Positions 2,539-46,966 of a stretch of DNA of 64,000 nucleotides are shown in pieces. Below the pieces are notes generated by a model, which was not told the DNA's origin, did no database searches, and worked only from the letters and a program-made list of their open reading frames with translations. Made by a program: the position numbers and the translations under genes. How positions within the stretch are numbered: position 1 is the stretch's first letter; every line of letters starts with the position of its first letter. The stretch lies in contig CAWJGT010000014.1 of the NCBI GenBank assembly GCA_963842525.1, forward strand, positions 64,001 to 128,000. The letters are read 5' to 3'. The DNA is from an uncultured Holophagales bacterium (lineage in GTDB: Bacteria; Acidobacteriota; Thermoanaerobaculia; Multivoradales; UBA5704).

Positions 2539-3276
2539 CTACCGCACTTCGAAATCGGCGATCACAGGCAGGTGGTCGCTGGCCACCCGGCTGACCTTGA
2601 GCAGGCAGCGGCGCACCCCGGCGAGCCGGAGGGGGCCGCGGTAGTAGATGCGGTCGAGGGGACCCTGGGGAGAGAAGGACGGGTAGGTCCGGATCGTCCG
2701 CCGCCGGCCGTTGCCGCCGTCGGTGGCGCACTGGAAGCCGAGGCCGTCGGTGAAGACCGGCCAGAGGAGCGAGCGCCAGTCGTTGAAATCGCCGCCCACC
2801 AGCATGGCGGTGCCCGGAGCCATGCCGCCGAGCTCGTTCGAGCGCGCCAGCAGGCTCACCTGCTTGAGGCGCTCGCGGGCGGACAGGCCCAGGTGCAGGT
2901 TGAAGACCTCCAGGCTCCGCCCAGCCTTCAGCTCGATGCTGGTGTGCTGGCAGCCGCGGCGGATCCAGCTCTCGGCCACCGAGAGGTCGATGTTGCGCTC
3001 GCGCAGGATCGGGAACCGGCTGAGGGTGGCGTTGCCATAGCGCCCCCGGCGCAGGCTGACGTTGTGCCCGACGGCGTAATGGGGATATTCCGAGGCCTCG
3101 GCCAGCTCCTTGGCCAGGTCGAGCTCGCGCGAGCGCGGCGCGCCTTCGTCGACCTCCTGCAGCAGGACCAGGTCCGCGTCGTAGTGACGAAGCACCTCGA
3201 CGATGCGCTCGGGGCGAAAGCGGCGGTCGACACCGATCGCCCGGTGGATGTTGTACGTCAGGATTCTGAGCTGCAA
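2539..3276 (-). CDS. Endonuclease/exonuclease/phosphatase (EEP) family protein
   Basis: Motifs LTYNIH, DLVLLQEV, GNATLSR, GDFND, LDRIY, ASDHLP. Confidence 0.87.
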   Translation of the reverse strand: MQLRILTYNIHRAIGVDRRFRPERIVEVLRHYDADLVLLQEVDEGAPRSRELDLAKELAEASEYPHYAVGHNVSLRRGRYGNATLSRFPILRERNIDLSVAESWIRRGCQHTSIELKAGRSLEVFNLHLGLSARERLKQVSLLARSNELGGMAPGTAMLVGGDFNDWRSLLWPVFTDGLGFQCATDGGNGRRRTIRTYPSFSPQGPLDRIYYRGPLRLAGVRRCLLKVSRVASDHLPVIADFEVR

Positions 3277-3508
3277 ACCGACGACTCGCCTCCTCGATGT
3301 CCGGGCCGGATGCCGGCCCGCAGGACTCCGACTATAGTAGCCGGATGCCGCCCCTCTACACGATCGGAGCCCTGGCGGGGGCCGGAATCAAGTATATGCA
3401 CGAGCCTGGCCTGGGAAGCCGGAGGACGCCCCGCCCCGATTCGCCGAACACCGCCTGGCGGGTGGAGGGGCGGCTGGTCTATAGCGGGCCGCAGGGAGGG
3501 CTGTTCGA

Positions 3509-6449: not shown

Positions 6450-6690
6450 GGGGCCCCGGTCCCTGCGGCCGGGACCACAAGACGCGTCCGGGTTTCGCGA
6501 TCCGTGTTGCGGGGACCGCTCAACGCGTGACGCGGACCGTGGCCCCTGTGACCGGAGGAGTGGTCCCTATGGCTGGGACCGGGGTCCCTGCAGCGCGGAC
6601 CGCGAAAGGCGGTCCGGACCCGCGAGCCCAGTCACACGGACCATGGCCCGCAGTCCGCGTTGCGTGGTCCCCGCGACGCGGACCCCTTCC
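6450..6690. repeat. Degenerate 21-nt period tandem repeat
   Basis: GGACC recurs at 6513, 6534, 6576, 6597, then 6638, 6680 (multiples of 21), with interspersed GGTCCC. Confidence 0.5.
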
Positions 6691-6785
6691 ATCCCCCTCC
6701 GGGAGAGGGGGAACGTTGATCGAGAATTCTCCCCTCTCCCGGGGATGGGAAGGGTGGGAGATGGGAGATGGGTCGGGTGTGAGGA
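6684..6785. repeat. GC-rich palindromic repeat (CCTCACCCCC/GGGAGAGGGG family), degenerate copy
   Basis: CCCCTCTCCCCGGGGATGGGAAGGGTGGGAGATGGGAGA...GTGAGG matches other copies in the window. Confidence 0.6.
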
Positions 6786-6789
6786 TCTA

Positions 6790-7350
6790 CGGCTGCGCCA
6801 CCACGAGGGCTTTCGAGCTTCCCGCTCCTGCACCGCAGCCGCAAGTTGCCGCAGCAGCGAAGGGACGATGCTGAGAAGGCAGGTGACGCCTTCCTCCGCC
6901 ATGCGGTCTTGTAGGGCCTCAGGATCGCGCGCCACATCGTCAGGGACGACCACGAGCCGCGCCCCGGCCGCGAGCGGCCCGAAGGTGTCACGCAGCGATG
7001 CATCGAAGGTGAGGGGTGCGAGCTGCAGCACCACGTCGGCCTCGGTGATCCCGTAGGTCTCCAGGATCCGCGACAGGTAGTCAGCCGCCCCACCATGATG
7101 GGCCAGGATCCCCTTGGGCCGGCCGGTCGAGCCGGAGGTGTAGGTCACGTAGGCGGCATCGAGCGGTCCAGCGACGGGAGAGGGTCGCTCTTCCGGCTCA
7201 TCCGCGAGCGCGTCCGGGACGAGGCTCGCGGCAGAGGCAAGCGACCGGGACGTTGTAGAACGCGCTCCCCGGCTCCAGGCGGTCGAGCACCCAGAGGCGC
7301 TGCTGCGCGAAGGAGAGCGCCGAGGATCTGGGGGATGGGAAAGCTCCGCC
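6790..7350 (-). pseudogene. Internally deleted NRPS remnant (C-domain start joined to A-domain core)
   Basis: LSFAQQRLWVLDRLEPGSAFYNVP (~7320-7250) lies about 100 nt before AAYVTYTSGSTGRPKG...LTFDASLRD, which then ends in a palindromic repeat. Confidence 0.65.
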
Positions 7351-7395
7351 CGTTAGATCCTGACATTCGTGGGCTCGCGCAAACCGCCTCAACGA

Positions 7396-7452
7396 CGTCC
7401 CCCCTCTCCCGGTCGGAGGGAGGGCGATGGGAGAGGGGGACAGGGGGTGAGG
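7396..7452. repeat. Palindromic repeat half-copy abutting the SHMT stop codon
   Basis: CGTCCCCCCTCTCCCGG...GGGAGAGGGGGACAGGGGGTGAGG. Confidence 0.7.
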
Positions 7453-8818
7453 CTACACAGCCATCGCGGCCCGGCTCGCGTAGCGCGGCACGGTGTGCAG
7501 GCGGCAGAGCTCCCGCACGCGGGCGATGACTCCTTCGCGGACCGCCCCGTCCAGCTCGTATTCGCGATCGCCCAGCGGACGGACGGCGGCGAGCACGCGG
7601 CGGACCAGGGCGGCACATTCCTCCATCTCCGGCGGCCCCATCTCACGCAGGGCCACGCTGTTGGTGCCCAGGCGCACGCCGCTGGTGATCACCTGGGCTC
7701 CGGGTATCCCCCGGAATGCGGTTCTTGTTGACCACGATATGGCACGCCTCCAACGCCCGCTCGGCCACGATGCCGGTCACCCCGGCGCTCCTGTGGACGT
7801 CCAGGATCACCAGGTGATTGTCCGTGCCGCCCGAGATCACCTCATACCCGTGGGCGGCGAAGCACAGCGCGAGCGCCTTGGCATCGTCCACGATCCGCCG
7901 CGCCAGACCGCGGAACTCCGGGGTGGTCAGCCGCGCCAGGGCCCGCGCCTTGGCGGCAATCACATTGAGCACGGGCGCCCCCTGGAAGAGCGGAAAGATC
8001 CCCTTCTGCATCGACTCGGCGAGCGTGCGGCCGAGCGCGCCGGGCGACGGCGCGTCCCAGTCCTTCCCCATCAGGATCAGGCCGCCCCGCGGGCCGTAGA
8101 GCTGCTTGTGCGTACAGGTGGTCGTGATGTGTGCATGATCGATCGGGCTGGGATGGAGCCCCGCCGCGACCAGCCCCGCAATATGCGTGATATCGGCGAG
8201 CAGCCACGCCCCGACCTCGTCGGCGATCTGCCGGAAGCGGGCGAAGTCGATGGTCCGCGGAAAGGCGGTCGTGCCGCAGATGATCAGCTTCGGCCGGTGC
8301 TCAAGGGCCAGCTCCCGCACCCGGTCGTAGTCGATGGCGCCGTCCGGGGTGACACCATACCCGACGGCATCGAAACAGCGGCCCGAGATCGAGACCTTGG
8401 CGCCGTGGGTCAGGTGCCCGCCCGCGCTCAGGTCCATGCCCAGCAGGGTGTCCCCCGGCCGCAGCAGGCTGAACATGACCACCTCGTTGGCAGTGGTCGC
8501 CGAATGGGCCTGCACATTGGCGTAGCGAGCGCCGAACGCGGCCTTGGCGCGGTCGATCGCCAAGCTCTCGATCTCGTCGATGACCTCGCAGCCGGCGTGG
8601 AACCGCGCACCCGGATACCCTTCCGCGGTCACATTGCCCGCCACCGTGGCAGTGCAGGCCAGGACGGACGGGTCCATCACACTGGAGGCCGCAACCAGGG
8701 TCAGGACCTCGCTCTGGCGCTGCAGCTCGCGCTCCAGCAGATCGGCCAGGAGCGGATCGTCCTGATACAGGAGATCGACCCCATTGGCGATGAAATCCCC
8801 CAGGCTCGTATCTCTCAT
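7453..8818 (-). CDS. Divergent serine hydroxymethyltransferase (GlyA-like, PLP-dependent), cluster-associated; one frameshift near 7690
   Basis: AEGYPGARFHAGCE, GGHLTHG, ADITHIAGLVAAG, TTCTHKQLYGPRGG, GGTDNHL, NKNRIP; C-terminus TSGVRLGT continues in ORF 7453..7692. ATG at 8818 overlaps the NRPS TGA (ATGA). Confidence 0.87.
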
Positions 8819-11800
8819 GGCCTCGCCTCCTCCAGAGGTTCTCCTTCGCGCTCCACCCGCTCCCGCTCCAACAGCATCCTCTGCACGTCGTCCTCCGACA
8901 GCTCGCTGAGCTGGAGGACCATGGCCGCGATCTCCTCCAGCTCGATCCCCTCGCTGCGACCGAGCGCCTCGGCCGTCGCCGCCACACCCGCCACCGTCGG
9001 GGCTTCGAGCAGGGCGCGCAGCGGCAGCTCGATCTGGAGCAGCGAGCGCAGCCGCGAGACCGCCTGGGTCGCGAGCAGCGAGTGCCCCCCCAGCTCGAAG
9101 AAGTTGTCCGTGGCCCCCACCTGCGGCGCCCCCAGGAGGTCGCTCCACACGCCGGCGATGACCGTCTCAATCGCCGTCCGCGGCGGCACGGGCTCGCGGG
9201 CGCCGGCCTGCACGGGCTCGGGATCCGGCAGGGCGCGGCGGTCCACCTTGCCGTTGGGCGACAGCGGCAGGGCGTTCAGGACAACCCAGGCCGTCGGGAC
9301 CATGGCCTCGGGCAGCCGGCCGCGCAGGAACGCCGCCAGATCGGAGGTCTCCACCGGCCGGCGCGGCACCACATAACCGACCAGCCGCGGCGCGCCGCCC
9401 GGCCCCGGCCGGGCCGTCACCACCGCCTCCTGCACCGCTTCGTGCTGCGCCAGGGCCGCGGTGATCTCCCCCAGCTCGATCCGTACGCCGCGCACTTTCA
9501 CCTGAAAATCGAGCCGCCCCAGCAGCTCGAGCTGGCCGTCCGGCCGCAGGCGCGCCAGGTCGCCCGTGCGATAGAGGCGGCTTCCCGGCTGGCCGCCAAA
9601 GAAACATCCAAAAGCATCGGGGACGAACTTCGAAGCCGTCAGGTCCGGCCGGCCGAAATAGCCGTGGCCGACGCCGATGCTGCCCAGCAGCAGCTCACCC
9701 GGAACGCCGACCGGCATCGGCTGCAGGAGCCGGTCGACCACATGCGCGCGCTGGTTGGCCATCGGCCGGCCGTAGGGGATGCTGCTCCACTCCGGCCGAA
9801 CTTCCTCCACGTTATAGATCGTGGAGTCCATCGAGACCTCGGTGGCACCGCCCAGGCTGATCACCGTGGCACCAGGCGCGAAGCGGCGAAGGCGGTCCGG
9901 CAGCGACAGCGGGATCCAGTCGCCGCCCAGCAAAACCAAGCGGAGATCGAGCCCCTCACTCCCTGCCCCATCCTTATTGTCCTTGACGTCCTTTGTGTCC
10001 TTTTGGCTCTCCAGATGCTGCACCAGCAGCTCCAGAAGCGCCGGCGCCGAGTGCCAGAGGGTGACCCGGTGCCGTTTCAGAAGCTCCGCCCAGCGCGCCG
10101 GATCGAGAGCGTCCGCGGCCCGCGGCAGCACGATCGCGGCGCCGGCCGCCAGGGTCCCGAAGACGTCGTAGGCGGTCATGTCGAAACCGAGCGAGGAAAC
10201 GGCCAGCAGCCGGTCGCCTGGCTCGACGTCGAAGCGCCGGTCGAAGTCCAGGAAGTTGTTGACCCGCCCGCGATGATCCAGCATGACCCCCTTGGGCGTG
10301 CCGGTCGATCCGGAGGTGTAGATCACATAGGCCGGGCTCTCCGGCATCGCCTGGGTCTCCAACGCGGTCGGTCCCTCCTGCCCCTCACTATTCAGAGTGT
10401 CGAGGCGGAGGACCGGCGCGCCATTCAAGAGCCCGCTTTTAAGCTTCGTTTGCGTGAGCAGTACAGCCGCCCGCGCGTCCTCTGCCATCAGAGCCAGCCG
10501 GGCCTGCGGATAGGCAGGGTCGAGTGGCACATAGGCGCCGCCAGCCTGCGCGATCCCTACCAGGCCGGCGACCATGTCCGTTGAACGCTCGACATTGATC
10601 CCTACCCGGTCGCCCGGCGTGACGCCCATCGAGCGCAGATGGCGGGCCAACTGGCTCGCCCGGTCCCGCAGCTCGCGGTAGGTCAGGCTCTCGTCCGCGG
10701 ACAGCACGGCCAGCGCCCCTGGGGCGCGCTCGGCCTGCTCCAGGAACAGGCTGTAGAGGGTGGCGTCCTCCGGGAAGTCGGTCCCCGTGTCGTTCCACTC
10801 GACACCGAGCTGATGCCGCTCCCCCGCCGACAGTAGCGGCAGCTCGGAGGCCGGCCGGTCCGGCTCGGCGAGAGCCGCGGTCAAAAGAGCCTCCCAATGG
10901 CCGAGCCAGCGATCGACCGTCGGCGCGTTCGAACAGGTCGGCGCTGTGCTCCACGCCGCCGCCCAGCCCTCCCTCGTTCTCGACCCCCATCAGGTCGAAA
11001 TCGAACTTGGCCGTGCCGCTGTGGAGATCGAGGGACGACAGCTCCAGGCCCGGCATGCGCAGCGGCGCAGCCGCCGGGGTGTTGTGCAGGGCGAACATGA
11101 CCTGGAAGAGCGGGTTGTGGCTGACGTCCCGCTCCGCGGTCGCGGCCTTGACCACCTCCTCGAACGGGAGGTCCTGGTGCCCGTAGGCGCCCAGCGTGAC
11201 CTCGCGCACCTGCTCCACCAATGCGCGGAAGCCGGGATCGCCCGCGAGATCGGCCCGCAGCACGAGCGTGTTGACGAAAAACCCGATCAGCCCCTCGATC
11301 TCGGCGCGGTTGCGGTTGGCGATCGGTGTGCCCACGGACAGGTCGGTCTGTCCGGTCAGGCGGTGGAGCAGCACGAAGAAGGCGGCGAGGCCGGTCATGA
11401 ACGGCGGCGCGCCCTGGCGCTGGCCGAGCTCACGGGCCGCGGACCACAGCCGCGGACCGATCCAGACCGGCCGGCGCCCGCCACGGAAGGTCGACACAGC
11501 CGACCGCCGCCGGTCCGCCGGAAGCTCCAGCACCGGCGGCGCGCCTGCCAGCCGCTTGCGCCACCAGGCGAGCTCGCGCTCCAGCGTCTCCCCCTGCAGC
11601 CGGCCGCGCTGCCAGACCGCAAAGTCGGCGTACTGGACCGGCAGCTCCGGCAGGCCGTGCCGCCGGCGCTCCCGGAAGGCCTCGTAGATCGTCGCGACCT
11701 CGCCGAAGAGCACGCCCACGGACCAGCCGTCCGCGGCGATATGGTGCAGGTTGACCAAGGCGATGTGCTCCTCAGGGCCGGTCCGCACGAGGGAGGCGCG

Positions 11801-13597
11801 GAAGAGAGTGTCCCGGGCCAGATCGAACGACCGCCCGGCCTCCTCCTGCGCCAGCCGCCGGACCTCGGCCTCCCGCGCCGCCTCCGGGACTTCCCGGAGA
11901 TCGATCACCGGCACCGCGAGATCGGGCGCGGCAACGATCACCTGGCGCGGCTGGCCCTCGGCCTCTGGAAACGTCGTACGGAGCGCCTCATGCCGGCGGA
12001 TGATCTCGCCGAGGGCCGCCCGGAAAGCCGGCACGTCGAGCGTGCCGCGCAGCCGCGCCGCGGCCGGGATGTTGTAGACCGGATTGCCCGGCTCCCACTG
12101 GTCCAGGAACCAGAGCCGCTGCTGCGCGAAGGACAGCGGCAGGTCGCCGTCGCGGGAAGCGCGCGGGATCGGCGGCGTCCCACCGTCCTTCTGCGCCGCC
12201 TTCTTGCGCAGCCGGAGCATCAACAGCGCCCGCTGCTCCGCCGTCAGCCCCGCCAGATCGCCTGGAGCCCCCTCCCCCGACCCCTCCCCCGCGCGGCCGC
12301 CACCCGCCACCCCGAGCGGGAGAGGGGCGCCACCATTCAACCCTCTCTCCTTCCCCCTCTCCCGTTCGGGGTGGCGGGCCGGGGGACGCACGGGAGAGGG
12401 GGCCAGGGGGTGAGGGCTCCGCCGGTCCGTCCGCTCCAGGATCGCCTCGAAAGGCTCCACGCCGAGGCCGACGACGAACCGGTGGGCCGCCTCGCGCGCC
12501 GCGGCCGACTGCCGGGCATAGAGGCCGGGATCACCGAGCAGCCGCGAGAGCGCCTCGCGCCAGGGGCCGATGTCCTGCGCCGGCACGACCGGCTCGGTGA
12601 CCTCGTTGGCATCCTGCCGATCGGTAAACTCCTCGATCGGGCGGACCGGTAGCACGAAGTCGGTCCCCAGCTTCGCCTCGGGCAGACCGCCGACGTCGCT
12701 CGCCAGCACCGGAATCCCCCGCAGCATCGCCTCGACGGCGGTGACGCCGAAAGCCTCCTGCCAGAGCGAGGGCATCAGCAGGACCCGGGTGCGCGCATAG
12801 ATCCGATCCACGTCATCAGCGGGCTCGAGCAGCGTGACGTTGGGCAGGGCTTCGAGCGCCTCCCGGTCCGGAGGCGTCGTCCCCCACGTCGGCACCGCCG
12901 CGAAGCGCACCCCTGGGAGGCTGCGAGCCAGCTCCAGGAAGATCGGCAGCCCCTTCACCGCGCAGGGATTGATCAGGGTGACGAAGCCGTCCGCATTGTC
13001 CTGCCCGAAGTCGGGAAACGGCCCGGAGCCGTAGATCGGAAAAGGAAAGACCTCGGCCTCCATCCCTCCCCACTGCCGGATGTAGCCGGCCACGAACCGG
13101 CTGACCGCCACGATCCGGTCCACCTGGCCGAGCATCCGGCTCCGCCGCTCGCTGGGATAGAACGCCTGCGGCCCGAACGGCAGGAAAGCCGGCGTATGGG
13201 AGAGATAGACGACCGGAGCGAGCTGCGCCTTGAGCGCCGCATCCAGCAGGTTCTGCGACGGGTCCTCCGATGACACCAGCACCCGGTCCGGCGCGAAGCT
13301 CCGGAGCCGCTCGACCAGCTCGGTCCGCAACCGCGCAGGGTCGGCCACCGCATGGACCTCGACGCCGCCGGAGCGGAACACATCGACGCCCTCACCCCGC
13401 TCCACTGCAATCCCCCGGGCCTCCAGCTTCGCAAGCACTTCCTCGCGTGTCCACCGGGACGGCACGGCCAGAGCCGGCACCACGGCCCGCACCACGTGAC
13501 CGCGTGCCGCAAGCCCCTCAGCCAACGCCCGGTTGCACTTGTTCGCCCCTCCTACAGCGGGGAACCACGGCAGATTCATGGTGAACAGGATCTTCAT
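8815..13597 (-). CDS. NRPS with N-terminal family-4 glycosyltransferase: GT4-C-A-T (frameshift near 10900)
   Basis: GT-B motifs GGANK and LLMPSLWQEAFGVTAVEAMLRGIPVLASDVGGLPEA; C domain LSFAQQRLWF, HHIAADGWS; A domain YVIYTSGSTGTPKG, YRTGDL, NGKVDR; T domain FFELGGHSLL. Joins ORFs 10439..13597 and 8815..10884. Confidence 0.9.
12267..12417. repeat. Palindromic repeat translated in frame between the GT and C domains
   Basis: Encodes PHPLAPSPVRPPARHPERERG...GGGRAGEGSGEG; ends GGGAGAGGGGGCCAGGGGGTGAGG on the + strand. Confidence 0.75.
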
Positions 13598-13729
13598 CGT
13601 TGCGGTCTCGGTGCGGACTTCCCTGCGGAGCGGGACACCAGGGTGTCCCGTCCGGTGCGGGGAGAGGCCGTCCCCCCGGCGGAGTGGGCGAAACAGAGTA
13701 CCACGGTCGTGCCGCGGATTGGCTGGGGG

Positions 13730-15295
13730 TCAGGATGGAGCCGACAGGTCTTCAGGGCCGGGTTCGATCGATAGGAAGTGCACCCGGCCGGACTCATCCC
13801 CGACGATTAGCCTTCCAGTCTCCGGGGAATAGGCCACCGAGCGCGGAGGTACCGAAGCGTCCCATCGGACGAGCCGGATACGATGCAACGGCAGTTCACC
13901 AACGCCACCGCGCTGACCCCACCGGTGTGCCCTTCGAGGATGCCGAGAGTCTCGCCGCTTTCAAGGTCCCATAACCGAAGCGTCTTGTCAGACGAGGCGG
14001 ACACCGCGCGACGGCCGTCTACCATCGCCACCGCGTTGACTCCAGCGGTGTGCCCTTCCAGAATGCGCAGGAGCTCGCCGCTTTCAAAGTCCCACAACCG
14101 CAGCGTCCTGGCCGAGACGGATACCGCTCGACGGTCGTCTACAACCGCCACCGCGCGGACCCCAAAGGTGTGTCCTTCCAGAGTGCGCAGGACCCTGCCG
14201 CTTTCCAAGTCCCATAACCGGAGCGTGCTGTCGTCCGAGACGGACACCACGCGACGATCGTCCACCACCGCCACCGCTCTGACCCAACTGGTGTGCCCTT
14301 CGAGGCTGCGCAGAGTCTCACCGCTTTCTAGGTCCCACACTCGAAGTGTCTGGTCGGACGAGGCAGACACCACACGGCGGCCGTCCACCACCGCCACTGC
14401 ATTGACCCAAGCCGTGTGCCCTTCAAAAGTGCGGATCAGGGGGCCTCCCGGGGGTGTCAGGTTTGCGTGTTTCGGCTGCAGCCAGATTCCGTGATTCCCA
14501 TCCCGAGATCTCCGTAGCAGTCTCTGAATCCCAGGCTCCTCCCGGTCCAGAAGCCGGCCGAGCAGCTGAGGAGCGAGCTGCGGTTTATCTCTCGCCAGGA
14601 CATGTGCCGAGAGCCGGAGGGCTCCCTCGACCAGCCGCAGCTCTTTGTCCTCCTCGCCCCGGAACCAGGAGTAGTCCGCGAGTATTTTCACTACACCGCC
14701 TCCAGATCGTCGTGAATCTCCTGGAGCGCCTGCGTCAGGGAGACCCCATCTTCCTCCACCAGCTCGCGGAGCTGTCGGTTCACGATCTTGAGAAGCAAGG
14801 GCCACTCGCCGAGCCGAGCAGCAAGGACGTTGAAGCTGGCCATATTGCCGTCCGCCAAGCCTGTGCCGAGGAGGGCTACTGCCTCAGAGCTGGCCATGGC
14901 ATCGACCTCGATGGAGATGCGGTCCGGCGGCAGAGTGCGGCTGTCCCGAGTGGTCACGAGCAGGGCAAAGCCGGAGCCGATCCCTCGGAAAGGCTCGATG
15001 TCCTCGGGCCGCCAGACATCGTCGACCACGAGAAGAGCTCGATTATCGGTCAGCACCTCGCGGAGCTTGGCGCCCGCAGTTGTCGCGGTCTCGAAGGCGG
15101 GCGGCTCTTCGTTGCGGCCCGGGTGGCACCCCTGAATCCCGCAGAGAAGGCGGTGGAAGGCATCAGCATCCTTCAGGCCAGACCGGAAGTCCACCCAGAT
15201 GAGACGGCGCAGGAAGCGGGGAAGCTCCGGCTTGTCAGGCTGGCGTGATCCAGGAAGGAGCACCGGAATGACGCGGAAATCCCCGTTGCTTACCC
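13730..15295 (-). pseudogene. Decayed TIR-NB-ARC-WD40 (NLR/APAF-1-like) gene
   Basis: TIR C-terminal part RVIPVLLPG...LPRFLRRLIWVDFR; NB-ARC Walker B LLVVDDVW, LLVTTR, EWPLLL; helical LRLSAHVLARDKPQLAPQLLGRL; five WD40 repeats (EGHT...AVAVVDGRRVVSASSDQTLRVWD). No Walker A; stop at 14691; last repeat GDESGRVHFL is out of frame. Confidence 0.72.
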
Positions 15296-15320
15296 GCTCG
15301 TCAAGCGCTCGTGCGCGGGC

Positions 15321-15668
15321 CGCACGGGGTCCAGCGGCTGCCACACGGGGTCGTGCGGCGGCGGCACGGGCTCGTGCGCGGGCTGCACGGGGTCGGGCGG
15401 CGGCGGCACGGGGTCGGGCGCGAGCCGCGCGGGGTCGGGCGGCTGCGGCACGAGGTCGAGCGGCAGCCACACGGGGTCGGGCCGCAGCCGCACGAGGTCG
15501 GGCCGCAGCCGCACGGGGTCGGGCGGCAGCCGCAGGGGGTCGTGCGCGGGCCACACGAGGTCGGGCGGCTGCCACACGAGGTCGGGCGGCAGCGGCACGA
15601 GCCCGTGCGGCTGCCGCTGGAGGTCGTGCGCGAGCGGCACGAGGCCCGGCAGCGGCCGCGCGAGGACG
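15321..15668. repeat. 21-nt tandem repeat, about 16-17 degenerate copies
   Basis: Consensus GCACGRGGTCGGGCGGCWGCC; heptad-periodic open frames on both strands. Confidence 0.85.
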
Positions 15669-16024
15669 CGTTCCTGGCACTGGCTCCCCTGCGGCTCGCA
15701 CGACATGGCCTCGTTCTCCTCAGCAAGCCTGCCGATGTGCATATTCTCCAGGATTCACATCCAGACGTCAACCAGATCTCTAGACATCCTCTGCCATGTC
15801 CAGTAAGCTACAGCATATCGAGCCGAGGCCGACACACTGTTTTGTCGCTCGGGCCAAGCTCTTTGACAATTGAAGCAAACGATAGAAACGGTTCGGGCCG
15901 TGGCCCGCCCAAGCCAGGCCCGAGCTTTTTTTAGCACCGCGGCCGGACACCGTCTTTCGACCTTGGGTCAGAAGTGCGTCTACCGCACCCCTCGGGCTCC
16001 GGCGTTCTGTGTACAATCCGGTGT

Positions 16025-16269: not shown

Positions 16270-18682
16270 TTGCGAGAGATCCGACAAGCCATCCGCCGGC
16301 TCGTCCGTACCCCTGGGCTGGCGGTCGCCGCGATCCTCTGCGCCGCGCTGGGCGTCGGCGCCGTAGGAGCGAGCTTTTCGCTCGTCGAATCCGTCCTGCT
16401 GCGTCCCCTCCCCTATCCAGAGGCCGGACGCCTGGTGATGGTGTGGGAGCGGGCTCTCGACGGCTCCGCCGAGCAGATCGTCTGCTCCTGGGCCAATTTC
16501 CTCGACTGGCGGGAGCGGAGCCGGAGCTTCGACAGGTTCGCCGCCTTCAACGTCTGGTTCCCGAGCGTGACCGGGACCGACCGCCCCGAGCGCCTGCTCG
16601 GTGCCGAGGCTACTCCGGAATTCTTCTCCGTCCTGGGCGCCAAGCCTGCCCTCGGCCGGCTGTTCCACTCCGAGGAGGGGCAGCCAGGGCGCAATGCCGT
16701 GGTGGTGCTCGGCTACGGCCTCTGGCACAGACGGTTCGGCGGTGACCCACAGGTGCTCGGACGGCGGATCGAGCTGGATGGTGCTCCGTACAGCGTCGTC
16801 GGAGTGCTGTCTCCGGGCTTCCGGCACCCCGAGCCGCTCTACTTCGACGAAACCACGGAGCTCTGGAAGCCGCTGGCCATCGAGGCCGGCACGGTGCCCC
16901 GCAGCAGCCGCTTCCTGCGCACGATCGGCCGCCTCGCGCCGGGGGTCGCACTGGACGCGGCGCAGGCCGAGATGGATGGGACCGCACGGCAGCTCGAGCG
17001 GGAGCACCCGTCCGACAACGAAGGGCTCGGCGTGCGGCTCGTCCCCCTCCACGAGCAGGTGGTGGGCGAGGTCCGGCCCGTCCTGCGGCTCGCCTTCGCG
17101 GCGTCGTTCCTGGTCCTGCTCATCGCCTGCGCCAACATCTCGGGCCTGCTGTTGGCTGCTGCCATCGGCCGCTCGCGGGAGACCGCGGTGCGCGCCGCCC
17201 TCGGCGCCGGCCGTGGACGCCTCGCGGTCCCGCTCCTTCTCGACGCCCTGCTGTTGACGCTGGCGGGCGGTGCGGCAGGGCTGGCGGTCGCGTCTCCGGC
17301 GATGCGCCTGCTCCTGGCCCGGAGCCCCAAAGCCTTTCCGCGCGCCGAGGAGGTCGGGATCGACGGCCGCGTCCTCGCCATGGCGTTGGGAGCATGCCTC
17401 CTCGCGGCCGTGCTCGCGGCCCTGGCGCCGGCCCTGCGCGCGGTCGCGCAGCCGGCCGGCCGAGGTCCTCCAGGAGGGGAGCCCCGGCGCGGGGAGCGCG
17501 CGCGGCGGACGGCTGCTGGCCCTGCTGGTGGTCCTGGAGACCGCGCTCGCCCTGCCGCTCCTCGCCGGAACGGGCCTGCTGGCAAAGAGCCTCGCCGGGC
17601 TGTCCCAGGTCCCCCTCGGGTTCGCGGCGGAGGACGTGCTGACGCTGCGCCTGGAGCTGCCGGCCGGGACCTATCCGGAGGCGGCGGATCGGCGGGCCTT
17701 CGCCGAGCGCCTCCTGGAACGGGTCGCCGCGCTGCAAGGCGTCCGGTCAGCCGGGCTCACCTCGACTCTTCCCCTCTCGGGGCTCTATGACATCAGCCGC
17801 GAGGCCATCCTCGATCCGCCGCCGCCCCAAGGGCCGGCTTCGATGCAGGCGGGATACCGGTCCGTCAGCCCCGGCTATTTTCAGGCTTTGGGCATCCCCG
17901 TCCTGGCCGGACGGCCCTTCGGCTCGGGGGACGGTCCCGAAGCGTTCGACGTGGCGCTGGTCAACCGGGCCTTTGCCAAGGCCGCCTGGGGTGACGCGAG
18001 CCCGCTCGGCCGAAAGGTAGTGCTGCGGAGCACGTCCGGCGACGTGACCCGGGAGGTCGTAGGCCTGGTCGGCGACGTGCGCCACGAAGGTCCGGCCGTG
18101 GAGCCGAAGCCGGAGATCTTCGTGCCGCAGTCCCAGAGCCCGACCCGCTTCGCGGCGTTGGTGGTGCGGGCCGAGGGGAGGACCGAGGCTCTGGCCGGCG
18201 CGCTCCGGAATGCGGTCCGCGAGATCGATCCGGATCTGCCGGCCGAGATTCGACCGATGGCCGAGCTGACGCACGGCGCCACAGCAGGGCCGCGCTTTCA
18301 GCTTCTGGTCGCCGGTCTACTCGGCACGGCCGCCGTGATCCTGGTGGCCGCGGGGATCGGCGGCGTAACCGCCTATTCGACGGCGCGGCGGACCCGCGAG
18401 ATCGGCATCCGCATGGCGCTCGGCGCCGGGCGGCGCGAGATCCTCCTCCTGGTGCTCCGCCGTGCTCTCGGGCTGACGCTGGCCGGCACGGTGCTCGGTC
18501 TGGCCGGCGCCCGGATCCTCACCCGCGGCATCGCCGGAATGCTTTTCGGGGTCGAGCCGGCCGACCCGGCAATGCTGGCCGCCGCGGCCCTGCTCCTCCT
18601 GCTGGTCGGTCTGGCCGCCGGCTGGCTCCCGGCCCGCCGCGCCCTAGGGGTCGATCCCGCCTCGGCACTGCGGTCGGAGTGA
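16270..18682 (+). CDS. ABC transporter permease, duplicated MacB/FtsX type (ADOP-like); frameshift near 17450
   Basis: VLLRPLPYPEAGRLV, VLLIACANISGLLLA, AVRAALGAGRGRL; second half TREIGIRMALGAGR...RALGVDPASALRSE. Joins ORFs 16270..17790 and 17270..18682. Confidence 0.87.
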
Positions 18683-18684
18683 GG

Positions 18685-18886
18685 CCTCACCCCCTGTCCC
18701 CCTCTCCCATCGCCCTCCCACCAACCGGGAGAGGGGGGACGTAGCTCGGGCTTGCAGGCGAGGTCGAGGCTTTTTCATGAGGGAGCCCCTGAGGAGCTCC
18801 GGCAAGCTACCTCCTCAGAGCAGCAACCACGTCCCCCCTCTCCCGGGGGAAGGGAGGGAGATGGGAGAGGGGGACAGGGGGTGAGG
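18685..18886. repeat. Full palindromic repeat between convergent genes
   Basis: CCTCACCCCCTGTCCCCCTCTCCCATC at left and GATGGGAGAGGGGGACAGGGGGTGAGG at right (terminal inverted repeats with internal hairpins). Confidence 0.8.
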
Positions 18887-18890
18887 ACAC

Positions 18891-19670
18891 CTACCCCACG
18901 AGATACCCCGCCGCCCGCATCTCCTCGAACAAGCCGGCCGGCAGCCCCGTGCGCGTGCAGAGATCCTCCACGGAGCTCTCTCCGTCGCACGCGGCAAGCG
19001 CCCTCCCCTGCCCGGCGGGGATCGACTTCATCGCCACCCGGCCCACGCCCGAGGCCGTGAGGAGCAGCCAGTGTTCCCCTTCCGGCAGGCCGTCCGGAGC
19101 CTGCTTCGCATCGAGAGCCTGGAGCACGGCGTCCGGATCGTGCCGGTAGCGGACCACCCGGCAGAGAGGATGGAGACGGAGGACGCAGGCGTCCGGAGCG
19201 GCGGTGGAGGGGGGCTCCGCGGGCGGCTGCCAGGCGCCGCCGGCTCGCCCCAGGTGGAGCATCGCCACCTCCGTCTCCAGCACCTCCTTGACGAAGCCGT
19301 TCACCAGACTGCCGTCGCGGAGCCGGGCGACGAGAAAATCCGCGAAGCTCAAGGCCTCGCGCAGGTAGATCTGCGTCTCCGGGGGGTGCTCGCTCCAGTA
19401 GGCCTGCACCATCTCCTTGAGCCCGCGCGGGCCGAGCACCCGGCAGGTGCGCGGCAGGGTGTTCGAGAGCATGCTCAGGCGGTTGGCGCGGTGGAGCATC
19501 GTCCCGGTCCGCAGCCTCGGGTCCTTCGCCAGCGTTTCGAGACGCCGCCGCTCCCGTGCGGAGAGGTCGAACGCGGCGAGGCTCTGCTCCGGGTCTTCGG
19601 CGACCCGCGCCCGGAAGGCGGACGACATCACCAGCTCGGAAAACGCCTGCTGGAAACCTTGGAGAGACAC
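18891..19670 (-). CDS. Putative MNIO partner protein (DUF2063/RRE-like)
   Basis: Starts about 10 nt after the DUF692 gene; MSLQGFQQAFSELV..., LPRTCRVLG...AYWSEHPP...EALSFADFL and a C-terminal winged-helix-like segment (ALAACDGESSVEDL...AAGYL) resemble DUF692 partners. Confidence 0.68.
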   Translation of the reverse strand: MSLQGFQQAFSELVMSSAFRARVAEDPEQSLAAFDLSARERRRLETLAKDPRLRTGTMLHRANRLSMLSNTLPRTCRVLGPRGLKEMVQAYWSEHPPETQIYLREALSFADFLVARLRDGSLVNGFVKEVLETEVAMLHLGRAGGAWQPPAEPPSTAAPDACVLRLHPLCRVVRYRHDPDAVLQALDAKQAPDGLPEGEHWLLLTASGVGRVAMKSIPAGQGRALAACDGESSVEDLCTRTGLPAGLFEEMRAAGYLVG

Positions 19671-19679
19671 CGGATGCGG

Positions 19680-20586
19680 TCAGGCGCGGCGGTCGAGGGC
19701 CTCCCGGGCCTTGCGCAGCTCCTGGCGCAGCGGCTCGGGGCCGATGCTGGGGAAATAGTTGCCGAACATCTCGAAGACCACCCCCGCCAGGTTCGGCGTC
19801 CGCGGCAGGGTCTCGTCGAGCATCCGCCATACCTCTTCCGGACAGGGGCCGCTGTGCGCGTCGAGGTACACGCCGTCCACCTCCATGCCGCCGCCGAGGT
19901 GGACCTCGACCACGCGCGTGAGATCCAGCCCGTCCAGGAGCTCCATGGGATCGAACCCGTGATTGCGGGCATTGACATAGACGTTGTGGAGGTCGAGCAG
20001 CAGGCCGCAGCCGGTCCGGGCCGACAGCCGGTTGAGGAACTCCGCCTCGCCCATCTCCTGCTCGGGGATGTCGAAGTAGTAGACGTTGTTCTCCAGCAGG
20101 AAGGGGACCGGCACCTCGGCCTGGACGTGCCCGACCCGCTCGCTGAGCATGTCGAGCACCGCCTCGTCATACGGCACCGGCAGGGTCAGGCCGACGTCGA
20201 CCGAATGGCCCGACGGGCTCTCCAGCCGGATGAACGAGAGGTGGTCGCTGTGCCAGGGGAATCCGTAGCGCCGCTGCCAGGCGGAGATCTGGTCCACGTG
20301 CCCGGTGTTCGAACCGGTCTGCGCTGCCGATCGACAGGCCGACACTGTGGGCCACAATGGGCTTGTGCTCCGCGACCCGGTCGAGAAACGGCTTCGAGTC
20401 CGGGTTCTCGCGATAGCGGCCGGGCGTCCCGGTCCCCTGGTCGGTCCAGAAGATGTCGGGGATGATCTCCAGGAAGTCGAAGCTGTCGAGGTTCTCGAGG
20501 ACGAAGTCGCGCAGCGGTCCCTGGTAGGAAAGGCCCACGCCGAGCTTCGGCAATGCGTCGAGACGGTTGTTGGGGAGGCTGGACAT
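19680..20586 (-). CDS. DUF692 family multinuclear non-heme iron-dependent oxidative enzyme (MNIO); frameshift near 20310
   Basis: LGVGLSY, DFLEIIPD, HSVGLSIGS, WHSDHLSF, FLLENN, GLLLDLHNVYVNARNHGFDP, VEVHLGGG, LDAHSGP, VVFE. Joins ORFs 20167..20634 and 19680..20357. Confidence 0.9.
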
Positions 20587-20604
20587 CAGGCTCCTGGTGT
20601 GGAA

Positions 20605-20628
20605 CGCGCACGCCCGGAGGCGTGCGCG
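20605..20628 (-). promoter_or_regulatory. Stem-loop between precursor genes and MNIO gene
   Basis: CGCGCACGCC-CGGA-GGCGTGCGCG, perfect 10-bp stem without a U-tract. Confidence 0.5.
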
Positions 20629-20643
20629 CATCACGGCCAGTCG

Positions 20644-20799
20644 TCAGTCGAAGAGGGCTTCCTGGAAGCCGCCGTCGCCGATGATCGTCGGATCGACGCC
20701 GGACAGGCAGGTCGGGCAGCTCTCGGTGGGGACCTTCGTCAAGTGCTCGGGGGCGTTGACCTCGGCCTTCTCTTCGACTTCCATGACTCTGTTCTCCAT
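20644..20799 (-). CDS. RiPP precursor peptide 2 (51 aa, CPTC motif)
   Basis: MENRVMEVEEKAEVNAPEHLTKVPTESCPTCLSGVDPTIIGDGGFQEALFD*; RBS AAAGGAGG; paralogue of the adjacent peptide; directly upstream of the MNIO. Confidence 0.85.
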   Translation of the reverse strand: MENRVMEVEEKAEVNAPEHLTKVPTESCPTCLSGVDPTIIGDGGFQEALFD

Positions 20800-20876
20800 C
20801 GGCTCCTCCTTTAGGGGCTCGGGCGTTCTACTTTCTTTAGGTGCGCGGTTGCGATCTTTCCGGGACCAGCCGGTCG

Positions 20877-21032
20877 TCAGTCGACGAGAGCTTCCTGGAA
20901 GCCGCCGTCGCCGATGATCGTCGGATCGATGCCGGACCTGCAGGTCGGGCAGCTCTCGGTGGGGACGATCGCCGCGAGCTCGGGGGTGTTGACCTCCGGC
21001 TTCTCTTCGACGTTCATGACCTTGTTCTCCAT
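20877..21032 (-). CDS. RiPP precursor peptide 1 (51 aa, CPTC motif)
   Basis: MENKVMNVEEKPEVNTPELAAIVPTESCPTCRSGIDPTIIGDGGFQEALVD*; RBS AAAGGAGGT; starts 84 nt after the NRPS stop. Confidence 0.85.
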   Translation of the reverse strand: MENKVMNVEEKPEVNTPELAAIVPTESCPTCRSGIDPTIIGDGGFQEALVD

Positions 21033-21116
21033 GCGAAACCTCCTTTGGCAGGGCTTATGCGCCCTACCCTCTCTAGGTGCACGAAGACGCCCTTTCCGGG
21101 ACCGGCCAGGGCGTTC

Positions 21117-46966
<25,850 letters not shown>

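Follow-up and report, generated by a model that had tools for sequence, protein, structure and literature searches.

A putative self-contained MNIO (DUF692) RiPP cassette, probably a mere neighbor of an NRPS, in an uncultured Holophagales bacterium

MNIOs account for a rapidly expanding range of unusual peptide modifications and, to our knowledge, most of their small subfamilies are experimentally uncharacterized. In the window (the whole stretch of 64,000 nt analyzed here, from an uncultured Holophagales bacterium), two short peptide genes, an MNIO (DUF692) gene and the gene for a partner protein follow a large NRPS on the same strand. This arrangement raises the question of whether the locus is a RiPP cassette in its own right or part of a pathway shared with the NRPS, and the initial annotation had proposed either a new MNIO RiPP family co-expressed with the NRPS or a true RiPP-NRPS hybrid. 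The overall explanation that we consider likely is that of a self-contained cassette with three functions (precursors, MNIO and partner), belonging to an experimentally uncharacterized subfamily and having the NRPS as a mere neighbor. The features of the locus are the following:

21117..34517, minus strand: terminal NRPS stretch, the last uninterrupted 4466 aa, with a carrier domain and a docking-type tail and no TE domain
21033..21116, minus strand: NRPS-A1 gap, 84 nt, strongly folding (dG of -43.5 and z of -4.4 over 87 nt, NRPS stop codon included), with AAAGGAGG at its end
20877..21032, minus strand: precursor A1, 51 aa, with the core C28-P-T-C31-R-S33-G34 and then the conserved tail DPTIIGDGGFQEALVD
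20644..20799, minus strand: precursor A2, 51 aa, second copy of a 233-nt tandem duplication
20604..20629 (about), minus strand: GC-rich hairpin with an 11-bp stem and a 4-nt loop, between the stop codon of the second precursor and the start of the MNIO gene
19680..20586, minus strand: MNIO (DUF692, PF05114), about 301 aa, in two frames
18891..19670, minus strand: partner protein, 259 aa, starting 9 nt past the MNIO stop codon
18830..18894: REP-like repeat, 65 nt, overlapping the stop codon of the partner gene
16270..18682, plus strand: MacB/FtsX-type duplicated permease, convergent, in two frames here
13807-15719: NB-ARC/WD40 gene, between the permease and the second NRPS region
about 13.7-6.6 kb: second NRPS region

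Most of the layout described in the initial annotation was confirmed. The two 51-aa ORFs, at 21032-20877 and 20799-20644, are both present on the minus strand, each with an AAAGGAGG RBS (spaced 6 nt from the first ATG and 5 nt from the second), and the GC-rich hairpin, the MNIO gene and the partner gene were all found downstream of them; likewise, the cassette starts on the same strand as the NRPS, 84 nt separating the NRPS stop codon (21119-21117) from the first ATG. The cassette is not, however, directly upstream of the second NRPS gene, as had been stated, because the permease and the NB-ARC/WD40 gene intervene; a homologous permease is found at the same place in the relatives G001, G017, and G007. 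The position of the hairpin is kept in six relatives, with different stem sequences, and the 63-nt region containing it shows a folding energy (dG) of -35.9, with a z of -3.6 versus shuffles. Further copies of the REP-like repeat occur within the NRPS ORF (21650-21714) and, inverted, at 18700-18742.

The deduced products of the two precursor genes are 78% identical, and the copies of the tandem duplication (20636-20799 and 20869-21032) show a DNA identity of 88%. An alignment of 28 precursors from the family revealed that residues C31, S33, and G34 (C-x-S-G) are invariant and that C28, hence the C-x-x-C, is present in 27 of them; the precursor from G006 lacks the first Cys. The motif C-x-x-C-x-S-G is located mid-peptide, followed by a tail of 15-20 residues, and starts with C-P-x-C in most of the short-type peptides, many long-type peptides reading C-A-P-C. 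Most of the 28 precursors carry two Cys and their N-termini are polar or acidic; inspection of these sequences revealed no visible hydrophobic N-terminal signal sequence, and none of the 28 matched any Pfam or NCBIfam family. The peptide from G025 (K-C-C-S-G) was excluded from the alignment, its start being uncertain and its cluster different (YcaO, radical SAM). With a profile of the precursors, 51 matches were retrieved from a collection of 1.84 billion cluster representatives and 352 clusters from one of 5.8 billion, and every named match is annotated as a hypothetical protein. The lowest rows (P0044, P0051, P0052, and P0053) were not counted, as they are long repetitive proteins with C-K-T-C-V-S-G-L-N-type repeats that look like chance or unrelated matches. 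ESM Atlas look-ups with one short and one long precursor returned only scores below 0.9, from unrelated clusters. We also considered as a fourth cassette gene a 76-aa ORF preceding the precursor in G001-G003, and rejected it for having no match in the window's genome (best E 0.85).

The MNIO gene is accompanied by an adjacent partner gene in 25 of 25 loci from relatives, and a motif peptide is encoded upstream of it in 23 loci, with hosts in Thermoanaerobaculia, other Acidobacteriota, Gemmatimonadota and some Proteobacteria. The order peptide-MNIO-partner therefore goes beyond chance, since it recurs in relatives of several phyla, and this recurrence, together with the match of the enzyme to PF05114, supports reading the locus as a true RiPP cassette of the MNIO (DUF692) type that encodes two precursors. 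Neither a protease nor an exporter is conserved at the cassette loci. No paper on the subfamily emerged from our literature searches, in which MNIOs were combined with NRPS, Acidobacteria, Thermoanaerobaculia, Gemmatimonadota or Brasilonema.

The partner is a weak DUF2063/HvfC/ApyI match. It matches Pfam DUF2063 at the margin: for a cut-off of 27.2 bits, the window protein scores 29.6 and that from G003 scores 26.6. A PDB sequence search found nothing meaningful (best E 0.76). Its AlphaFold2 model (mean pLDDT 92.7) is helical over residues 3-142 and forms an alpha/beta RRE-like domain over residues 163-253, and the three best PDB matches of this model are TglI 8hi7_A (E 1.9e-6), TglI 8hci_A (E 4.6e-6), and NGO1945 3dee (E 6.2e-5). 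As modeled, the partner shares the fold of the solved MNIO partners, with a helical N-terminal domain, DUF2063-like, and an RRE-like C-terminal domain. A model of the complex of peptide, MNIO (chain 1, that from G003) and partner supports binding, with a score of 0.66, versus 0.16 for the best control, and passed a mark that 116 of 157 solved complexes and 2 of 215 mismatched pairs attain; part of this pass may reflect likeness to the solved TglHI-type complexes. Contact agreement among runs was at least 45% and the peptide pLDDT was 44-48, the fold of the peptide being uncertain. The modeled contacts are those of peptide residues 32-51 with residues 54-89 of the partner and with residues 82, 119, 132-134, 234-245, and 274-280 of the MNIO; Cys28 and Cys31 lie outside the confident contacts.

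Comparisons with the known MNIO systems showed both shared and differing features. In NCBIfam tests with four intact orthologs plus a C-terminally trimmed one (L056), the best match was to BufB (NF050167), which nonetheless scored 163-184 bits for a cut-off of 310; the other models scored also below their cut-offs, namely HvfB (NF003818; 131-155 bits, cut-off 360), ApyH (NF050151; 126-137 bits, cut-off 400), ChrH (NF050165; 70-79 bits, cut-off 600), and MbnB (TIGR04159; 21-27.5 bits, cut-off 325); the partner model, for its part, resembles TglI and NGO1945. The subfamily thus lies below every curated functional MNIO model tested. With the bufferins and captophorins (BufB, HvfB, FonB; PME-type 1 DUF2063 partner; 5-thiooxazoles), the cassette shares the order peptide, MNIO and DUF2063-like partner as well as a conserved Cys in the peptide. 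However, its peptides are not Cys-rich, as are the precursors of that group (DUF2282, Lys-Cys or Cys-Lys repeats), match neither DUF2282 nor any other Pfam model, and show no visible Sec signal peptide, which is usual in that group; additionally, a DoxX gene is not linked to the cassette, and recognition is predicted to occur via the C-terminal tail.

In the TglHI system (pearlin/3-thiaglutamate), the MNIO has its best PDB sequence match in TglH (8hci_D, E 7.9e-28) and the partner model its best fold match in TglI, whereas the Cys of the cassette peptides is internal, instead of an added C-terminal Cys. The idea that the peptides could be a TglH-like scaffold for a small product fails, since a PEARL/LanB-type amino-acid-adding enzyme and a release protease are not conserved at these loci. 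Likewise, the ApyHI system (aminopyruvatides) has a partner of the same fold class, and both peptides from the window end in Asp, but the window cassette is without P450 or radical-SAM genes; an ApyH-like chemistry on the C-terminal Asp does not hold for a family in which only 6 of 28 peptides end in this residue. Finally, the group designated adjamnio-7 comprises, in the sections available of its source, putative MNIO precursors with a CxxC motif and no signal peptide, e.g., from Novilysobacter spongiicola (Antoine et al. 2025, PMC12452194). The cassette peptides, whose long type was encountered in Lysobacter sp. SG-8 and a Xanthomonadaceae MAG, may be related to this group. The available text and spreadsheets of this source make no mention of Thermoanaerobaculia or NRPS, its two spreadsheets have no adjamnio-7 entry, and its available sections report no chemistry for this group.

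From these comparisons and models, we propose the following mechanism. Each peptide would be translated from its own strong RBS, and the hairpin ahead of the MNIO gene would either lower the expression of the enzyme relative to that of the peptides or stabilize the peptide transcript. The MNIO and its partner would form a heterodimer, in which the N-terminal helical domain of the partner (residues about 54-89) is predicted by the complex model to grip residues 42-51, the conserved C-terminal tail of the peptide; this tail would therefore be a follower, with recognition independent of an N-terminal leader. This grip would bring peptide residues 32-40, the x-S-G segment past Cys31, to the iron site, and the MNIO would then oxidize Cys31, and probably also Cys28, using O2. 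By analogy, the product may be a Cys-derived heterocycle, either a 5-thiooxazole or an oxazolone-thioamide, an assignment that we make tentatively. Two heterocycles in C-P-x-C could create a metal-binding (copper) site, which would not be universal because the G006 precursor lacks the first Cys.

The main alternative for the product, rather unlikely in our opinion, is a ChrH/DybH-like chemistry (chryseobasins), consisting of a cross-link of both Cys of the C-P-x-C plus a backbone heterocyclization, with no thiooxazole. According to the sections available of PMC13056109, ChrH acts on C-P-x-C-G-x-G to generate a -4 Da macrocycle plus a heterocycle, and the short-type peptides mostly open their motif with the same C-P-x-C, so that both systems pair an MNIO with a short C-P-x-C-led motif in signal-less peptides. 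Nevertheless, the same sections describe ChrH-type enzymes as having a C-terminal helical bundle and no obvious partner protein, whereas the cassette MNIOs are of about 300-310 aa, with no such bundle and with the partner always adjacent. Past the second Cys, the cassette motif continues as x-S-G-x-D, versus G-x-G in ChrH, and the low score with the ChrH model, the replacement of Pro in many long-type peptides and the single Cys position left in the G006 motif also argue against this chemistry.

The reading frame of the MNIO gene is interrupted in the window. ORF 20634-20167 matches positions 1-68 of the PF05114 profile (30.7 bits) and ORF 20357-19680 matches positions 65-261 (168 bits), for a cut-off of 25 bits, whereas intact orthologs match the entire profile with 190-218 bits; the likely start is the ATG at 20586, with AGGAG ahead. 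The initial annotation had flagged a frameshift in this gene, and we indeed found one extra A at window position 20308/20309, where the window reads TTCGAACACC and five relatives read TTCG-ACACC; the extra base is present in the assembly, but it is best read as an assembly error and not as a genuine frameshift. It is missing (position 20308) from the three environmental contigs that cover the site, which originate in three studies (two DNA runs and one RNA-library run) and which, being 88-99% alike to the window, may derive from other strains. Aligned to the G003 ortholog, the two MNIO pieces meet with neither gap nor overlap at residues 93/94. Additionally, frame switches were found in 14 of 28 G002 proteins with orthologs in the window's genome, amounting to 34 along the 18,635 residues aligned (conserved coding sequence, 55.9 kb) over five contigs, or 0.61 per kb. 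Because the relatives and the contigs lack the extra A, and because of this genome-wide rate, the frame break is almost certainly an assembly error.

It is very improbable that the MNIO is truly frameshifted in this strain and that the cassette is here a recent pseudogene, even if the extra base stands in the assembly as given and the contigs used for comparison are perhaps from other strains. The interruption is a single one-base insertion with no further damage, and the precursor and partner genes are intact. Among 21 orthologs, residues H80, H112, D114, H115, E165, D198, H200, N201, H229, D242, H244, and E272 are invariant, and all 12 are kept in the pieces from the window; we take these positions to be metal ligands, by the MbnB/TglH structures. 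Moreover, frame switches affect even proteins that are 87-94% identical to those of G002, and their rate corresponds to uncorrected indel errors, not to gene decay. Contigs from a metatranscriptome library cover the MNIO at 19973-20547, a weak hint that the gene is expressed. Sequencing runs each cover small shares of the stretch (at most 0.18), and the matching contigs are from soil-labelled runs.

As previously described, an NRPS of ~26 kb precedes the cassette; it starts near 47.0 kb, stops at 21.1 kb and is spread over several frames. In G002, the NRPS is a single ORF of 7988 aa, which also favors frame errors in the assembly of the window. A true link between both systems, with the cassette co-transcribed and the modified peptide acting as a building block, an acceptor of the lipopeptide chain or another kind of co-worker, has several points in its favor. 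Besides the short distance on the same strand, a consensus scan of the NRPS-A1 gap (with non-canonical signals outside the range of the tool) found neither a sigma-70-type promoter nor, as also noticed in the initial annotation, a U-tract terminator. The junction between NRPS and cassette is also kept in G000, G001, and G002, as well as in an environmental contig whose gap is longer by 803 letters, and it stays the same between G000 and G002 while their outer flanks differ; the upstream NRPS subunit, additionally, has no TE domain.

Against this link, an NRPS was found beside only 3 of 26 cassette loci, the three belonging to a single genus and carrying orthologs of the same NRPS (among the negative loci, upstream sequence is missing for one and limited to 1.4-5.4 kb for five), so the consistent NRPS neighborhood that had been put forward as a test of the hybrid idea is not observed. 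The closest cassette, from G003 (MNIO 82% identical), is flanked by methyltransferase genes, and a search of the G003 genome with the terminal NRPS module from the window found no ortholog, only paralogous modules of about 60% identity. NRPS-like genes occupy 10.3% of the window's genome, in 72 blocks, and therefore a chance adjacency is likely. The missing TE, previously taken as fitting a hybrid pathway, has an ordinary explanation: the motif of the C-terminal tail is common to at least seven other NRPS carrier-domain ends in the genome, and is therefore a generic inter-subunit tail, so the NRPS seems to end as a non-terminal subunit would, in a docking tail. No conserved companion of the cassette is a PEARL/LanB-type enzyme, a protease or a stand-alone condensation enzyme. 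Additionally, a -10-like TA(G/C)(A/G)A(A/C) element is located 25-35 nt ahead of most precursor start codons, paired with TTGACC at a 17-nt spacing in G017 and G007, which suggests that the cassette has its own promoter; the empty promoter scan of the gap is compatible with read-through from the NRPS, which may thus also occur. Together, these results do not support a RiPP-NRPS hybrid pathway, which we regard as highly unlikely, and the adjacency is probably due to local ancestry within one genus, with no pathway partnership. Equally unlikely is the capture of the cassette by a lipopeptide NRPS operon in one Thermoanaerobaculia genus, the MNIO-modified peptide working with the lipopeptide as a metal-binding/carrier partner or a chain acceptor; if true, MNIOs would take part in a type of ribosomal/non-ribosomal collaboration that has so far not been described for them.

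The NRPS link and the frameshift thus have ordinary explanations, which saves effort on the hybrid hypothesis, and frame errors in this assembly occur about once in every 1.6 kb of coding sequence. The subfamily is now defined by a sharp substrate signature, C-x-x-C-x-S-G, and by a minimal three-gene cassette, with intact orthologs suited to co-expression. It also offers a testable prediction, namely that the precursors would be recognized through a C-terminal follower held by the helical domain of the partner, and not through an N-terminal leader.

The initial annotation placed two 51-aa ORFs with ribosome-binding sites, a hairpin, a DUF692 (MNIO) enzyme gene and a partner gene behind the stop codon of a ~26-kb NRPS gene, and all of these are present in the sequence:

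21119-21117, minus strand, stop codon of the very large NRPS, 84 nt before the first precursor ATG
21032-20877, minus strand, ORF of precursor A1, 51 aa
20799-20644, minus strand, ORF of precursor A2, 51 aa
about 20629-20604, minus strand, GC-rich hairpin of 11 bp after the second precursor stop codon
ATG at 20586, minus strand, MNIO/DUF692 gene with AGGAG ahead, its reading split over two frames
19670-18891, minus strand, partner gene, 259 aa, starting 9 nt past the MNIO stop codon
16270-18682, plus strand, MacB/FtsX-type duplicated permease, convergent to the cassette

Both precursor ATGs are preceded by AAAGGAGG, at a spacing of 6 nt in the first and 5 nt in the second. The deduced peptides are 78% identical, and the tandem duplication of which their genes are the two copies spans 233 nt and takes in the upstream spacer. 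A related environmental sequence, from a contig of sequencing run X2, skips 251 nt at positions 20812-21064 and has a single precursor copy; the duplication therefore looks recent. The 63-nt region bearing the hairpin folds with a dG of -35.9 (z -3.6), and the position of the hairpin, with different stem sequences, is kept in six relatives, which would fit a role in setting the peptide:enzyme ratio.

A direct search with A1 retrieved only five sequences out of 5.8 billion, and two of these belong to the window itself. Close orthologs of the MNIO, which cover PF05114 in full length, were found in 21 of 92 same-family genomes, including that of the window (G000), as well as in one genome of a neighbouring family and four more MAGs; the records of these relatives name Thermoanaerobaculia, Acidobacteriota, Longimicrobiaceae, Gemmatimonadales and one Gammaproteobacteria MAG. 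The partner gene follows the MNIO gene in all 25 of the relatives' loci. In 23 of them a short ORF sharing the core is found immediately upstream; one locus has no upstream sequence, and the divergent peptide of genome G025 is excluded from the alignment. The precursors form a conserved family upstream of this MNIO clade, in support of the MNIO RiPP cassette read by the initial annotation.

Aligning 28 peptides showed C31, S33 and G34 in every one and C28 in 27 of them, the peptide of genome G006 lacking it. The short type (45-56 aa), which includes the window's peptides, has a variable N-terminus followed by C-P-T-C-x-S-G-x-D-P and a conserved tail; the long type (64-90 aa) combines a conserved N-terminal region with the core G-C-A/R-P-C-L-S-G-L-D. 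Searching with a profile built from this alignment gave 51 cluster representatives among 1.84 billion, of which ~46 look genuine, and a 99-aa metagenome peptide (P0012) contains two complete short-type cores and tails in tandem (..ECPTCLSGVDPNV.. twice), making it a predicted natural two-core precursor. The same profile matched 352 clusters among 5.8 billion, those with a name being all "hypothetical protein" and one coming from Lysobacter sp. SG-8; Pfam and NCBIfam models gave zero matches to the 28 peptides. The locus of G025 (L016, G025:C27:25000-44999) contains a 64%-identical MNIO, its partner and, upstream of the MNIO, a K-C-C-S-G-bearing peptide, in a different RiPP-like cluster with YcaO, Rieske/ferric-reductase, S8 peptidase, Asn-synthase-like, radical SAM and FAD oxidoreductase genes.

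Other elements surround the cassette. Just upstream of the precursor, genomes G001 and G002, of the same genus as G000, and G003, with the closest cassette, have a ~76-aa ORF (..LLRxVLRKRQPSxLW..; 3149-3376, minus, in locus L011; 4209-4439, plus, in L012; 8798-9022, plus, in L013) with no match within G000. The convergent permease is also found at the cassettes of G001, G017 and G007 (loci L012, L014 and L015), which with the window makes four of the six genomes of the family (genera g1 and g3) that have short-type cassettes; a role in export or immunity is possible, as is a chance neighbourhood due to how common such permeases are. A REP-like repeat of ~65 nt, rich in CCCTCTCCC / GGGAGAGGG, occurs at 18830-18894, 18700-18742 (inverted) and 21650-21714, with one copy overlapping the partner stop codon and another within the coding frame of the NRPS; contigs from soil metagenomes stack on it, with a summed depth of ~2,500 in run X1.

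The MNIO orthologs scored below cut-off with all the curated functional models compared: BufB (163-184 bits, cut-off 310), HvfB (131-155, 360), ApyH (126-137, 400), ChrH (70-79, 600) and MbnB (21-27.5, 325). The clade is frequent in metagenomes (1860 clusters at E 1e-40 or better), and its members, including those from Brasilonema octagenarum and a Roseiflexaceae MAG, are named only DUF692 or UPF0276; by sequence, the nearest PDB entries are 8hci_D (TglH) and 3bww, a DUF692 protein from Histophilus. The partner sequence has weak DUF2063, HvfC and ApyI matches. Its model (mean pLDDT 92.7) comprises a helical domain and then an alpha/beta domain, and the three structures that it matches best belong to solved MNIO partners, two entries being TglI and the third NGO1945. 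Contigs from a soil metatranscriptome library align on the MNIO gene, which is at most a hint of expression.

The split reading of the MNIO gene had raised the concern of a genuine frameshift. Alignment with five intact orthologs revealed one extra base in the window (TTCGAACACC vs TTCG-ACACC in relatives); on the G003 ortholog the pieces meet precisely between residues 93 and 94, and they retain 12 of 12 polar residues invariant across 21 orthologs. Additionally, one base is absent at position 20308 in all three public contigs that cover it (~95-97% alike), which derive from three studies (two DNA runs, one RNA-library run). Half of the 28 G002 proteins compared with their G000 orthologs (14/28) are read in more than one frame in G000, which amounts to 34 switches of frame over 18,635 aligned residues (0.61 per kb of conserved coding sequence) on five contigs (C3, C14, C23, C27 and C34); for example, a 232-aa protein 94% identical to that of G002 has three, and the orthologous NRPS, a single 7988-aa ORF in G002, is broken many times in G000 between 34.5 and 47 kb. 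The relatives, the public contigs and this genome-wide rate speak against a genuine frameshift: a real private mutation in the source organism is unlikely, and we consider the break very probably an assembly error. Given the same rate, any "pseudogene" or "split gene" call in G000 should be distrusted. The cassette of two precursors, MNIO and partner is real and, we predict, probably functional.

The G003 MNIO, the window's partner and A1 were modelled together as three chains, each with its alignment. The model supports peptide binding, scoring 0.66 against 0.16 for the best control, a level that 116 of 157 solved complexes attained, as did 2 of 215 mismatched pairs, although this pass may be partly owed to solved TglHI-like complexes; runs shared at least 45% of contacts, with a peptide pLDDT of 44-48. 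Confident contacts join peptide tail residues 42-51 to partner helices 54-89, and peptide residues 32-40 touch MNIO residues 82, 119, 132-134, 234-245 and 274-280, which flank the invariant His/Asp/Glu set; neither peptide Cys is among the confident contacts. The tail contacts agree with the variable N-terminus and conserved tail of the short type, and the model suggests that the C-terminal tail of the precursor would be gripped by the partner's helices as a follower. By analogy, we infer an O2-dependent oxidation of Cys31 and probably also of Cys28. A thiooxazole or an oxazolone-thioamide would be the most likely product, if only tentatively, followed by a ChrH/DybH-like cross-link as a rather doubtful second option; other chemistry may also apply.

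The initial annotation also considered a RiPP-NRPS hybrid pathway. In its favour, neither promoter nor terminator was found in the 84-nt gap between the NRPS and A1, and three genomes with differing outer flanks share this junction. However, a tblastn search with two NRPS modules showed that homologous cassettes are not consistently beside NRPS sequence, which appears at only 3 of 26 loci (G000, G001 and G002), all from one genus and with the same orthologous last module (75-77% identity); upstream sequence is missing at one of the 23 negative loci and limited to 1.4-5.4 kb at five others. The cassette of G003, with an MNIO 82% identical, is flanked by methyltransferase genes, and this genome has only paralogous modules, ~60% identical over part of the query. 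Likewise, the cassette is accompanied by neither a PEARL-type enzyme nor a release protease nor any other coupling enzyme, and we consider a hybrid pathway unlikely. NRPS-like sequence amounts to 1.02 Mb of G000 (10.3% of the genome, 72 blocks), so its adjacency to the cassette is unremarkable. The lack of a TE domain, put forward for the hybrid, is real; nevertheless, the upstream NRPS terminates with a carrier domain followed by a C-terminal tail motif that recurs at at least seven other NRPS carrier-domain ends in G000 (E 3e-4 or better). This motif looks like a generic docking tail such as a non-terminal subunit would have, and the missing TE would be explained by it. A -10-like element is conserved ahead of most precursor genes, paired with TTGACC at 17-nt spacing in G017 and G007, suggesting that the cassette has its own promoter. 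The placement of the cassette upstream of the second NRPS region (~13.7-6.6 kb) in the initial annotation needs a correction: the convergent permease and an NB-ARC/WD40 gene intervene, and therefore cassette and region do not form one operon.

One environmental contig joins the NRPS tail to a precursor with 803 other letters between. In genomes congeneric with G000, strong matches to NRPS modules range from ~50 to 150 or more per genome. In the upstream NRPS, the last adenylation domain (21120-24419, minus) has an embedded FkbM-type methyltransferase, kept in the G001 and G002 orthologs. The second NRPS region (6570-13729, minus) opens with a fusion of GT4 glycosyltransferase and condensation domains; A-T, a serine hydroxymethyltransferase-like ORF (7646-9166) and another A-domain fragment follow, with frame breaks here too.

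A full-text search of the published literature returned nothing on this subfamily or on an MNIO-NRPS link. A survey of the MNIO landscape describes many small unexplored clusters, among them "adjamnio-7", a signal-less CxxC family exemplified by Novilysobacter, and its text and two spreadsheets make no mention of Thermoanaerobaculia or NRPS (PMC12452194). Because long-type peptides occur in Lysobacter and Xanthomonadaceae, the present family may be adjamnio-7 or its relative. The ChrH subfamily is described as defined by the motif C-P-x-C-G-x-G, by a helical bundle at the C-terminus and by the lack of a partner protein (PMC13056109), and none of these three traits holds for this cassette. Captophorins, in which an MNIO and a PME1 partner convert a Cys-rich peptide to 5-thiooxazoles (PMC12668002, preprint), share the gene order as described there, but differ in model matches and peptides. 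The subfamily is new to experiment; its peptide signature is sharply defined and its recognition is predicted to be of the follower type, and the cassette is a good target for enzyme discovery.
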